Shown: piece by piece, positions 9,253 to 62,066 of the stretch | Layout: the number at the start of each line of letters is the position of its first letter | How positions within the stretch are numbered: position 1 is the first letter of the stretch | The notes under the pieces: model-generated | Seen by the model: only the letters and a program-made list of their open reading frames with translations | Told to the model about the DNA's origin: nothing | The model's database searches: none | Position numbers and translations under genes: made by a program | Assembly (NCBI GenBank): GCA_035650735.1 | Contig: DASRGZ010000206.1 | Span: 1 to 64,000 of the forward strand | Direction of reading: 5' to 3' | From: Chthonomonadaceae bacterium | GTDB taxonomy: Bacteria > Armatimonadota > Chthonomonadetes > Chthonomonadales > Chthonomonadaceae | DNA length: 64,000 nt

Positions 9253-9581
9253 GGAGTCGGCGAAGCCCCCACCTTCCCACTGCCAGCTCTCGCTTTATGC
9301 GCCATGCCACGCGCGACTACCTGGGAGTCGGCGAAGCCCCCACCCCCTTCCCACTGCTCGGGTCGGCGCTGCAATGGCTCGCGCCTCCGCCTAGCCACAC
9401 CTGGCCACAGCCCTCCGCCTGGCGACACCTACGCGGGCAGAGACAAGACTTGGCTTCTCCTCTCCCCTCCCCTGTTCTTGGGGATCGCTAGGTGTCGCCA
9501 GGCGGAGGGCCGAATTATTGTAGCCCCGACCCTTGCAGTCAGCAGGCCGCAGGCCCCACAGCGGCAGGGTTCAGCCTGCCG
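9253..9581. repeat. Composite repeat: 31/34-bp direct duplication, family A arm, 46-bp element copies and a palindromic REP arm
   Basis: 9253-9283 approximates 9324-9357; element copies at 9353-9426 (-) and 9494-9539 (+). Confidence 0.75.
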
Positions 9582-12367: not shown

Positions 12368-12586
12368 CAACAGGATGAACAGGATTTTGCAGGATTAAAC
12401 AGGGTTTCTAATACCAATCCAACCAGCCGAGTGCCTATGTCTCTTAACTTAGTTGAGTGGAAGGTTTCTCTCTTGGCCATGATTCTGCTCATCAACACCT
12501 GCCTTACCCTCTTAACTTAGTTGAGTGGAAGGTTTCTCTCTTGTCTGTAATCCTGTAAATCCTGAGAAATCCTGTTCATCCTGTTG
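12368..12586. repeat. Inverted repeat built from ~9-bp CAGGAT units, enclosing a 35-bp direct repeat pair
   Basis: 12368-12406 is inverted at 12549-12586; 12441-12475 is identical to 12509-12543. Confidence 0.8.
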
Positions 12587-59307: not shown

Positions 59308-59871
59308 ATGAGCACGGTTTCAAACCTCCCTTCCGGCTCTACACCGCAGAAGAATTGTTCAATCTGCCGAAGGATGGCTATTTATATGAGCTCGTTCGTG
59401 GAGAACTGTGCAGAATGGCCCCACCTAGCGCCAAACATGGAAGCACGACCGCCCGCCTGTTTTCGCGTGCCGGCATTTATATAGAGGATAATGATCTCGG
59501 CGAGGCTTTTACCTCAGAAACCGGCTTTCTGCTCGCGCAGGACCCGGATACCGTTCTGGCGCCCGACTTCGCTTTTATTGCCAAGGAGCGCCTCCCCGAA
59601 CCGTTGCCGGACACGTATATTCCTGTTGTCCCCGACCTTGTTCTGGAGACCCGCTCGCACAGCGATACCAGGCGCAGAGTCAACGAGAAAGTAGCGCTCT
59701 GGCCGGAATTTGGAGCCAAAATAGTGTGGGAACTCGATCCACGCAAGCGTGTGCTCACGGTGTACCGTTCGGGTGTCGAGCCGCGCACTTGGCCTTGACG
59801 ACATACTATCCGGCGAGGACGTGCTGCCGGGGTTCTCGCTGCCAATCCGTCGCCTGTTCCGGCAACCCTGA
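59308..59871 (+). pseudogene. Uma2/DUF820 endonuclease-family gene with two frameshifts
   Basis: YTAEEL..YELVRGEL..APD..PDLVLE..GEDVLPGF; shifts near 59333 and 59790. Confidence 0.8.
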
Positions 59872-59951
59872 GAGGAAGGCATGCCCAACCTATCTGTGTG
59901 CAGTGCGAGGCGCTGTTTGCGGAGCCTTTGTTGCCAGGAGTGAGGATTCAA

Positions 59952-60420
59952 ATGACTGCCGAACTCAACAAACTCAAGCCCTCCCTCTGCGCAACGCGGC
60001 GTCCGGAAGTGACAGAAGCCCTCCTTGCGGACATAACGCAGCGTATTGTGGAGGCGTTTCACCCGCATAAGGTCATCCTGTTCGGCTCCTATATCTCTCA
60101 AAGAGAGCCTCCCGAACCTTTTACGCCCGTTTCACCCGCATAAGGTCATCCTGTTCGGCTCCTATGCCTACGGCACGCCGCATAAGGATAGTGACGTAGA
60201 CCTGTTCGTTATCATGGACTCCGACGAGTCAACCCACGCTCGCATTGTGAAAGTGACAAAGGTGGCGAAAGTGCCGTTCCTATCGATGGATATTATCGTG
60301 CGGACATCCAAAGAGGTTCAGGAGCGCCTGGCAATAGGCGATTTTTTCGTGATTGAAATTCTGGAAAAGGGTAGGGTTCTGTACGACCGTGACGCTACTA
60401 TTCTGCTAGCTCGCCCTTAA
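59952..60420 (+). pseudogene. Minimal nucleotidyltransferase (MNT) gene disrupted by a 73-bp duplication-plus-insert
   Basis: ILFGSYAYG..DSDVDL..EKGRVLY; 60055-60092 is identical to 60128-60165. Confidence 0.85.
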
Positions 60421-60439
60421 TATTCCGCTCTGAGGGAGA

Positions 60440-61252
60440 ATGATGCCCAACTTTATTTGTGTGCAGTGTGGGGTGCAGTTTACGGAGACAGAGAGGCCGC
60501 CGGAGCATTGCCCTATCTGCGCGGACGAGCGGCAGTACATCAACCCGAACGGGCAGGCGTGGACGACTCTGGAAGACTTACGCACCGACCATCGCAGCGT
60601 CTTGCAGGAGCACGAGCCGGGCCTGATGGGGATCGGGACAGAACCGCACTTTGCCATTGGGCAGCGCGCCCTGTTGGTGCAGTCGCCCGGCGGCAACATC
60701 CTCTGGGACTGCATTAGCCTGATGGACGACGCGGCGGTGGAAGCGGTGCGTGCGCGCGGCGGCCTCTCTGCCATTGCCATCTCGCACCCGCACTTCTATG
60801 CGGCGATGGTGGAGTGGAGCCGTGCCTTCGGCGGCGTGCCCATCTATCTGCACGCCGCCGACCGGGAGTGGGTCATGCGTTCCGACCCGGCCATCGCCTA
60901 TTGGGAGGGCGAGACGCAGGCGCTTGGCGAGGGGCTGACGCTGATCCACTGTGGGGGCCACTTTGCGGGCAGCACGGCGCTGCATTGGGCCGGGGGCGCG
61001 GAAGGACGCGGCGCGCTCCTGACCGGCGATACCCTCCAGGTCGTTGCTGATCGCCGGTACGTCAGCTTTATGTACAGCTATCCGAACCTGATCCCGCTGC
61101 CCGCGCCCGCCATCCGGCGAATCGTGGAGGCCGTCGAGCCGTTTGCCTATGATCGCATCTATGGCGGCTGGTTCCCCAGCGTCGTCTCGGAGGGAGCCAA
61201 AGCCGCCGTCGCGCGCTCGGCGGAGCGTTATCTTCACGCCGTCGGAGGTTAG
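60440..61252 (+). CDS. MBL-fold metallo-hydrolase-like protein
   Basis: CVQCG..CPICADERQY, ISHPHFY, GGHF, TGD. Confidence 0.88.
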   Translation: MMPNFICVQCGVQFTETERPPEHCPICADERQYINPNGQAWTTLEDLRTDHRSVLQEHEPGLMGIGTEPHFAIGQRALLVQSPGGNILWDCISLMDDAAVEAVRARGGLSAIAISHPHFYAAMVEWSRAFGGVPIYLHAADREWVMRSDPAIAYWEGETQALGEGLTLIHCGGHFAGSTALHWAGGAEGRGALLTGDTLQVVADRRYVSFMYSYPNLIPLPAPAIRRIVEAVEPFAYDRIYGGWFPSVVSEGAKAAVARSAERYLHAVGG

Positions 61253-61970: not shown

Positions 61971-62066
61971 AGTTGCATCGGACGGGAGCGCATTTGCGAC
62001 TCGCTGTATTCGAAGGCAAAGCTGTGGTAGATCGGCAGTTGCATAGGACGGGAGCGCATTTGCGAC
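61971..62066. CRISPR. Orphan CRISPR-like mini-array (2 repeats, 1 spacer), unconfirmed
   Basis: AGTTGCATMGGACGGGAGCGCATTTGCGAC at 61971-62000 and 62037-62066; 36-bp unique spacer; no cas genes in window. Confidence 0.45.

Follow-up and report, generated by a model that had tools for sequence, protein, structure and literature searches.

A spacer-sized insert within a duplicated stretch of a nucleotidyltransferase gene suggests off-target Cas1-Cas2 integration in a Chthonomonadaceae bacterium

Results

A nucleotidyltransferase gene contains a direct duplication around a spacer-sized insert

The window, by which we mean the whole stretch of DNA analysed, comprises the first 64,000 nucleotides of contig DASRGZ010000206.1. 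It belongs to a Chthonomonadaceae assembly of 6.52 Mb in 224 contigs, 97.6% complete, referred to here as G000; G001 is a sister species of the same genus, and X1, X2, X6 and X7 are sequencing runs. Towards the end of the window, a short gene is interrupted by a direct repeat with a unique sequence between its copies.

59952..60420, + strand: small nucleotidyltransferase (MNT-like) gene, PF01909 and PF18765, frameshifted by a 73-bp insertion
60055..60092, + strand: first repeat copy, exact over 38 bp; the true length is probably 37 bp (60056-60092)
60093..60127, no strand assigned: spacer-sized insert, 35 bp, or 36 bp counting base 60128
60128..60165, + strand: second copy of the duplicated target, identical in sequence to the first

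The two copies agree at 38 of 38 bases at an offset of 73 and enclose the 35-bp insert, as a preliminary description of this DNA had reported. In the G000 assembly, the duplicated repeat occurs twice and the insert once. The 73-bp insertion shifts the reading frame, and translation of the nucleotidyltransferase ends after 63 residues. An alternative TTG or GTG start in a shifted frame opens 60046-60420, from which a predicted whole nucleotidyltransferase domain with a new N-terminus is possible. The likeness of the protein to MntA is weak and below the cut-off, no HEPN partner was seen adjoining the gene, and an Rfam search of the scar site gave no match.

The neighborhood shows other signs of change. 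The Uma2-family gene upstream (59309-59871) has frameshifts near both ends, its G001 copy is intact, and the gene order around it differs between G000 and G001. Downstream, the start of a metallo-beta-lactamase-fold gene is duplicated (82%) about 560 bp upstream, and these two stretches (59881-59924 and 60443-60487) frame the nucleotidyltransferase gene as an apparently older insertion.

The sister species carries an empty allele of the gene and the donor of the insert

We searched 30 relatives for the ortholog and the insert. The ortholog in G001 (assembly 89% complete) is 79% identical, shows one clean 73-bp gap against the G000 gene, and has an intact reading frame. Removing the insertion from G000 in silico restores an open frame of 132 codons, whose product aligns to the G001 protein over 117 aa at 77% identity with no gaps. 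The reverse case also occurs: a G001 gene carries a 39+39-bp scar where its G000 ortholog is a precise 78-bp empty site. The duplicated part is unique coding DNA, single copy in G001, so the earlier statement that it is host gene and not CRISPR repeat stands.

This bears on whether a CRISPR mini-array, decayed or with a regulatory role, inserted whole into the gene. G000 does have both solitary repeats and true mini-arrays, and the duplicated stretch starts as a CRISPR repeat does: 60056-60092 begins GTTTCA, as do 37-bp CRISPR repeats of relatives, and matches the 37-bp repeat of L028 at 18 of 37 positions in exact register (four other 37-bp repeats, 14-16). However, the unit is in-frame host DNA and the empty allele refutes a mini-array origin; moreover, we found no third copy of the 38-bp unit in G000 and no promoter-like site within 59700-60460. 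We therefore regard such an origin as very improbable. Membership of a CRISPR array or mini-array, in the sense of a dedicated cas-linked repeat with a leader or promoter, was rejected for a unit made of unique host coding DNA.

The insert has a source in G001. Bases 60094-60128 are identical at 35 of 35 positions to G001 C483:21617-21651, which is intergenic there, and base 60093 differs. This suggests that the insert is 36 bp with a changed first base and that the duplication is 37 bp, starting GTTTCA. At the G001 locus, the hairpin of the insert continues past the insert's left edge and the flanking duplication is absent, indicating that G001 holds its native context and that the insert is an internal fragment cutting through the hairpin of a larger element. 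The donor region is present in G001 in two diverged copies (75-76%), and the DNA immediately following a full-length TnpB gene in G000 (PF07282, PF01385) aligns with one end of these elements. By this alignment, the donor is probably an internal piece of a non-autonomous IS200/IS605-like element. Rfam gave no match for the donor element, and an exact 24-base piece of the insert had 0 matches among viral contigs. The donor has no clear PAM, with GCC or CCC on one side and GCA on the other.

When we scanned a metagenome collection for the insert, there were two matches, the scar and a G001-like donor, in one shared assembly. The two species thus co-occur. As the insert is 100% identical while genes are 79% identical, DNA appears to have passed between them recently, by the element or otherwise; it is also possible that G000 itself has an unassembled donor copy or had one that was lost.

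Scars of CRISPR-like geometry are spread across the genome in three size classes

The preliminary description had listed three more sites in the window. All three are real; they differ in strength as candidate scars.

61971..62066, no strand assigned: another scar, of the 30-bp class; 30-bp copies that differ at 1 base, 36-bp insert, period 66
12441..12543, no strand assigned: possible scar, 35 bp exact, 33-bp insert, period 68; ambiguous
9253..9344, no strand assigned: doubtful scar, 21 bp exact, period 71; borders a family of dispersed repeats

The 61971 site fits the main class described below. The 12441 site is ambiguous because it lies inside a looser 56-bp, 84% duplication, and its G001 counterpart is too diverged to reveal an empty site. 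The 9253 site is the weakest of the three and is doubtful. G000 has many dispersed palindromic repeat families of 40-65 bp in tens to more than 100 copies (for example, at 9350-9400 of the window), and some scars landed within such families.

We scanned G000 for exact two-copy repeats with a minimum length of 24 bp, a minimum gap of 10 and a maximum period of 200. Of 100 unique pairs, 79 had a period of 55-80 and a gap of 28-46, and they were spread over 66 contigs at a median of 8 kb from a contig end. By period alone, 83 pairs fell at periods 55-80 (26 periods), against 17 across the other 141 periods. This is the peak that had been anticipated; it is sharp and lies at the sizes of the lineage's CRISPR repeat plus spacer.

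A mismatch-tolerant scan (period 58-80) returned 196 pairs: 75 near 30+37 bp (51 of them exact), 27 near 37+36 bp (10 exact), 11 near 29+32 bp (5 exact), 49 in multi-copy repeats and 34 unclassed. The 11 members of the 29+32 class include five true type I-E-like repeats and one or more protein repeats. Counting mismatched ones, there are about 100 scars. Duplication lengths are discrete, with few at 33-35 bp, and the 11 exact long scars have periods of 70-75. Many scars have mismatches between their repeat copies, a sign of age. The earlier idea of a promiscuous integrase scarring the whole genome thus stands as to extent, but with three size classes it was probably not one integrase.

Only 7 of the 79 exact scars lie inside genes called by a crude codon model, whereas such genes cover about 75% of the genome, indicating that most hits to genes were purged. 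For four intergenic scars, empty alleles were unreadable against G001, which is too diverged there. Across the 79 sites, the inserts form no families, have no terminal inverted repeats and do not resemble their own flanks (mean identity 0.25 and 0.27). A MITE or insertion-sequence footprint was rejected for the nucleotidyltransferase site, whose insert has no inverted ends and is an internal fragment of a larger element.

Sequencing runs from three studies span the scar

The preliminary description had called for confirmation in reads, and run contigs do span the structure: four of seven runs were compared with the stretch, and the insert with both junctions (60063-60157 or wider) is present in contigs of all four, which come from three studies. 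X1 and X2 are possible sources of the assembly, X6 and X7 carry no such mark, and X7, whose cover of the stretch is patchy, was counted for junctions alone. In X1, depth is 15.1 in the 95-bp loop, 13.6 and 13.2 in the flanks, and 24.7 in the repeat unitig. Loop depth close to that of the flanks with a higher repeat unitig is as expected for a fixed allele. No joint bypassing the insert was among the joints listed for the four runs. The 61971 site is crossed without differences by single contigs in X1 and X2.

With donor and scar in one metagenome assembly, a chimera of two related genomes could in principle have produced the structure. However, the junctions recur in all four runs at about flank depth in X1, X2 and X6, target and donor have no common word at the junctions at which an assembly graph could cross, many scars have mismatched copies, and scars lie a median of 8 kb from a contig end. 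An assembly artefact is largely refuted already and seems to us barely conceivable.

The assembled cas1 matches the 30-bp class, and other CRISPR systems have left repeats behind

We next asked which integrases could account for these geometries. G000 has a single cas locus, with type I-B cas7, cas5, cas3 and cas4, a type III-A module, cas1b and cas2. Beside it lies an array of 80 repeats of 29 bp, and its 79 spacers include 34 of 36 bp, 24 of 37 bp and 14 of 38 bp. A cas1 was thus present, as the off-target reading supposed; this sole assembled Cas1, of type I-B with a 29-30-bp repeat, is mismatched with the 37-38-bp site. We found no second cas1 in G000, neither for the 37-bp nor for the type I-E repeat, and none was shown in G001 (89% complete). 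As only the type I-B Cas1 is assembled, the enzyme for the 37-bp site is missing.

The closest relatives of the G000 Cas1 are in Armatimonadota (Chthonomonadales, Capsulimonadaceae; 60-73% identity), and relatives with this type of Cas1 have 30-bp repeats beside it. Lineage arrays have repeats of 29-30 bp and periods of 64-73. Other relatives have 37-bp repeats with periods of 71-76 beside type I-C-like and other long-repeat Cas1, or 29-bp repeats with a period of 61 beside type I-E Cas1. Two small differences count against the match with the resident system: its array duplicates 29 bp, and the scar class assigned to it about 30 bp; period modes are 66 and 68 for the 30-bp scar class against 65 for the array. 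For the 30-bp class, the cognate cas1-cas2 fits to within one base. For the 37-bp class, the 224-contig assembly offers solitary repeats alone. The type I-B Cas1 (L003:8250-9428, on C93 of G000) carries about 60 residues of acidic, low-complexity sequence inserted after position 129, a feature common to at least seven relatives in the order.

Far from cas genes, intergenic DNA holds solitary true CRISPR repeats: 7 belong to the type I-B kind and about 15 to the 37-bp kind. There are also 71 matches (70% or better) to type I-E-like repeats, in mini-arrays and as solo copies, with no type I-E cas1 in the assembly.

Solitary 30-bp-type repeats, G000: C89:7863, C152:3580, C19:48197, C166:40668, C121:514, C162:11575, C3:8091
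Solitary 37-bp-type repeats, G000, among others: C13:8201, C13:11714, C33:3081, C89:7761, C94:2434
Solitary 37-bp-type repeats, G000, continued, among others: C97:2042, C79:32694, C76:215, C112:9397, C128:8317
Type I-E-like mini-arrays and solo repeats: C109:6231, C126:9840-10050, C127:3547-3700, C42:25175, C114:9683, C69:3855

Scattered solitary repeats of all three kinds indicate that the lineage carried those systems. The solitary copies of the type I-B and 37-bp kinds could be recombination scars or RNA processing sites. Downstream of several solitary 37-bp copies lie AAAC runs, after which a gene starts in the sense direction, and one C109 spacer matches G000 itself at C91:1275.

Two scar classes have different target motifs

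The target sequences of the two larger classes are not random. At the 25 exact 30-bp sites, A12 or its mirror T19 is present at 33 of 50 positions (p = 6e-11), C13 at 26 of 50, and G or C at the ends at 41 of 50, all as in the resident repeat. Identity to that repeat averages 11.9 for the class against 10.8 ± 0.2 in shuffles, a value that 0 of 300 shuffles reached. We assembled a long-class set of 26 sites after dropping one protein repeat; 2 of the 26 look like decayed true repeats. Of these 26, 15 have CA at positions 5-6, where shuffles give 6.0 and 1 of 5000 reaches the observed count. Whole-length likeness to 37-bp repeats beat shuffles for one of the five repeats tried, that of L028. Orienting the scars by repeat likeness was unreliable, and as the motif is near-palindromic we make no claim on the orientation of PAM relative to repeat.

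These motifs help in weighing whether the resident type I-B Cas1-Cas2 made all classes, the 37-38-bp site included, by a slipping ruler, a reading that differs from ours in the enzyme assignment only. This cas1 is the only one in the assembly, and 10 of 27 long sites are still exact, implying that the class was made until recently. In addition, at C106:28873, a 35+35-bp site, the insert overlaps a recent leader-proximal type I-B spacer by 17 bases. Slipping, however, sits poorly with discrete duplication lengths and few at 33-35 bp, and the long class has its own CA end motif at positions 5-6 rather than A12/T19. The solitary 37-bp repeats and the dozens of type I-E-type repeats likewise show that such systems were once present. 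We consider a single resident enzyme unlikely, and the enzyme for the 37-bp site was probably that of a 37-bp-repeat system that is lost or unassembled.

Some inserts match self DNA, a sister species or spacers of the resident array

To learn where inserts come from, we looked for full-length copies elsewhere in G000. Seven of the 79 exact inserts have one, and the other 72 have no donor in the assembly. In a wider set of 178 inserts, 23 matched: 9 unique scar donors, 1 mini-array spacer and 13 dispersed or protein repeats. The preliminary description had called for a search for a shared PAM. Among the seven self donors of the 30-bp class, CCG is adjacent in 4 (p = 4e-4), one base off in 1 and absent in 2; the donor of the 60093-60127 insert shows no clear PAM. 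A CCN PAM is known for types I-A and I-B.

Four of the seven self-derived exact inserts come from C15, a 43-kb chromosomal contig (C15:2024, 4215, 17136 and 32865), and two C15-derived inserts landed 350 bp apart on C135. Judging from translations, C15 contains dnaE-like and rpoC-like genes, and we rejected a prophage or plasmid; its repeated use could point to primed acquisition or to a hot spot of breaks.

Three of 136 inserts overlap resident-array spacers end to end (score 13-17) and then run into non-repeat sequence, where 1 of 598 random 37-mers reached a score of 12 (p = 0.02). Such overlaps suggest that scars and array sampled the same invaders. A donor search by two patterns from these inserts gave 0 matches. 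We compared four more long-class inserts with 12 relatives and another three with G001 only. Six of these seven had no match; the other had a weak one (85% over 34 bases, E = 4e-4) within a G001 gene that G000 lacks.

Two sites went beyond a single event. At C224:43547, a 30-bp non-CRISPR unit is present three times, with two spacers, and at C198:74294, there are three copies at a gene start with a long-class insertion nested in one spacer. The suggestion that scars could seed mini-arrays thus holds for two sites that grew to three repeats. Five multi-scar loci compared with 5 genomes gave no insert match, with dispersed repeats crowding the candidate lists.

The donor evidence also bears on a non-CRISPR origin, in which break-repair templated insertion, replication template switching or another integrase inserted DNA with a target duplication. 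IS605-family elements move via single-stranded intermediates. The donor lies inside an IS605-like element, and a matching Cas1 for the 37-bp class is absent from the assembly, both in keeping with such an origin. However, junction microhomology is at most one base, and the duplication and insert lengths are narrow and CRISPR-sized, whereas templated repair has no known ruler. The inserts also lack terminal inverted repeats, families and flank likeness, and neither CCG flanks nor array-spacer overlaps would be expected. We judge a non-CRISPR origin quite improbable.

High scar density is not a feature of the whole order

We looked for scars in other genomes. A 317-kb sample of G001 had 3 exact pairs (periods 61, 78 and 82), and another Chthonomonadales genome has a 31+35-bp scar in which the final codons of its own cas1 are duplicated (L118:2388). 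We found 0 scars in G012 (400 kb) and G008 (223 kb), both with the resident Cas1 type, where the G000 rate predicts 7.5 (P = 5e-4 for zero in 623 kb). High density is thus not order-wide. G016 (15 kb) and G155 (60 kb) also had 0, in samples too small to count.

The DNA-bending proteins HU and IHF (PF00216) were found in 0 of 21 genomes of the order (20 relatives and G000), with a control positive in 9 of 14. Across the phylum, 59 of 151 genomes have them, and they are missing by whole families. Their absence in the order may be permissive for off-target integration, given that HU suppresses it in a type III-A system (PMC13769266, in the available part of that report). HU loss as a sufficient cause was rejected, as G012 and G008 lack HU, bear cas1 and are scar-free in 623 kb. 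The acidic insert of Cas1 was likewise rejected as a sufficient cause, since relatives share it and the G012 and G008 samples have 0 scars.

Discussion

An empty allele, CRISPR-sized lengths (37-38 bp plus 35-36 bp, period 73) and a repeat-like target are all found at 60055-60165. Taking geometry, motifs, PAM and shared donors together, we infer that the site arose by off-target Cas1-Cas2 spacer integration, with a probability of roughly 0.88, which supports the preliminary description's reading. Cas1-Cas2 would have captured about 36 bp from an IS605-like element common to the co-occurring sister species. Within a weakly repeat-like part of the nucleotidyltransferase gene, the two prespacer ends would then have been joined, one to each strand, at points 37 bp apart, and gap filling would have duplicated the 37 bp as it does a CRISPR repeat, completing full-site integration. 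The strand transfer and gap filling steps are established knowledge. The event could have become fixed because the gene is dispensable, and was presumably neutral.

The same error would account for the approximately 100 scars and their three size classes. We tentatively assign the 30-bp class to the resident type I-B Cas4-Cas1-Cas2, the 36-38-bp class to a system with 37-bp repeats (type I-C-like, or else some other long-repeat type) that is lost or outside the assembly, and the small 28-29-bp class to a type I-E system.

Off-target 'neo-CRISPR' units were described in E. coli type I-E under laboratory overproduction of Cas1-Cas2 (Nivala, Shipman, Church 2018; 10.1101/148544, PMC7054753), and the accessible text gives natural evidence as circumstantial, from two other species (10.1101/148544). 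The G000 scars resemble those units in having a spacer-sized insert, a repeat-sized duplication of non-CRISPR DNA and the potential to seed new arrays. As far as that text goes, the E. coli events were rare and made by one overproduced integrase, whereas G000 has about 100 fixed natural scars of mixed age and three geometries, and adds two re-used sites and donors from self, a sister species and array-sampled invaders.

In vitro, Pyrococcus furiosus Cas1-Cas2 performs off-target full-site integration at G/C 30 bp apart with A12 enriched, and its off-target sites need only about 43% identity to the repeat (PMC6698737, as far as available). The 30-bp class of G000 has the same 30-bp spacing, G/C borders and A12. 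By the portion of that study at hand, its target was plasmid DNA in a tube and no 37-bp class was studied, whereas the scars described here are in a natural chromosome and the nucleotidyltransferase site belongs to the 37-bp class. CRISPR mini-arrays and solitary repeats, as they appear in the literature available, have the same repeat-spacer-repeat shape built of true CRISPR repeats, whereas the G000 scars are built of unique host sequence.

Integration fidelity depends on host factors in several systems, according to the parts of the reports available: HU in type III-A of Thermotoga profunda, where off-target events occur without it (PMC13769266), archaeal histones (PMC13748974), and IHF in type I-E. 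Off-target integration without an architectural protein is the situation in those systems, and the order of G000 likewise lacks HU/IHF. Control by HU is, however, described there for type III-A, whereas the assembled Cas1 of G000 is type I-B, and its HU-less relatives G012 and G008 are scar-free.

In a literature search that had most subscription journals and all supplements outside its reach, we found no genome-wide natural set of off-target scars. New here are the scale, the three classes with two target motifs, the repeated hits, the donor in a co-occurring sister species, the targets common with a true array, and the HU/IHF lead. Beyond this, we raise, tentatively and with some doubt, the idea of a natural multi-channel recorder. 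Three Cas1-Cas2 integrases, two of them lost, might have left datable fixed scars owing to the order's lack of HU/IHF; scars might be re-used and grow into true new arrays with host-sequence repeats, and inserts might log exchange with neighboring species and viruses.

What is known of off-target spacer integration comes mainly from test tubes and forced overexpression. From the roughly 100 natural, fixed scars of this soil bacterium, which belongs to an uncultured phylum, one can read a target logo in vivo for types of Cas1-Cas2 as well as a fossil record of vanished CRISPR systems, and the strong purging from genes measures the mutational cost of adaptation. Scars are also a likely source of questionable two-repeat CRISPR calls. 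The question they raise across genomes is how scar density relates to the absence of HU/IHF or histones, and the route from a single error to a three-repeat array bears on the origin of new arrays and of repeat sequences.
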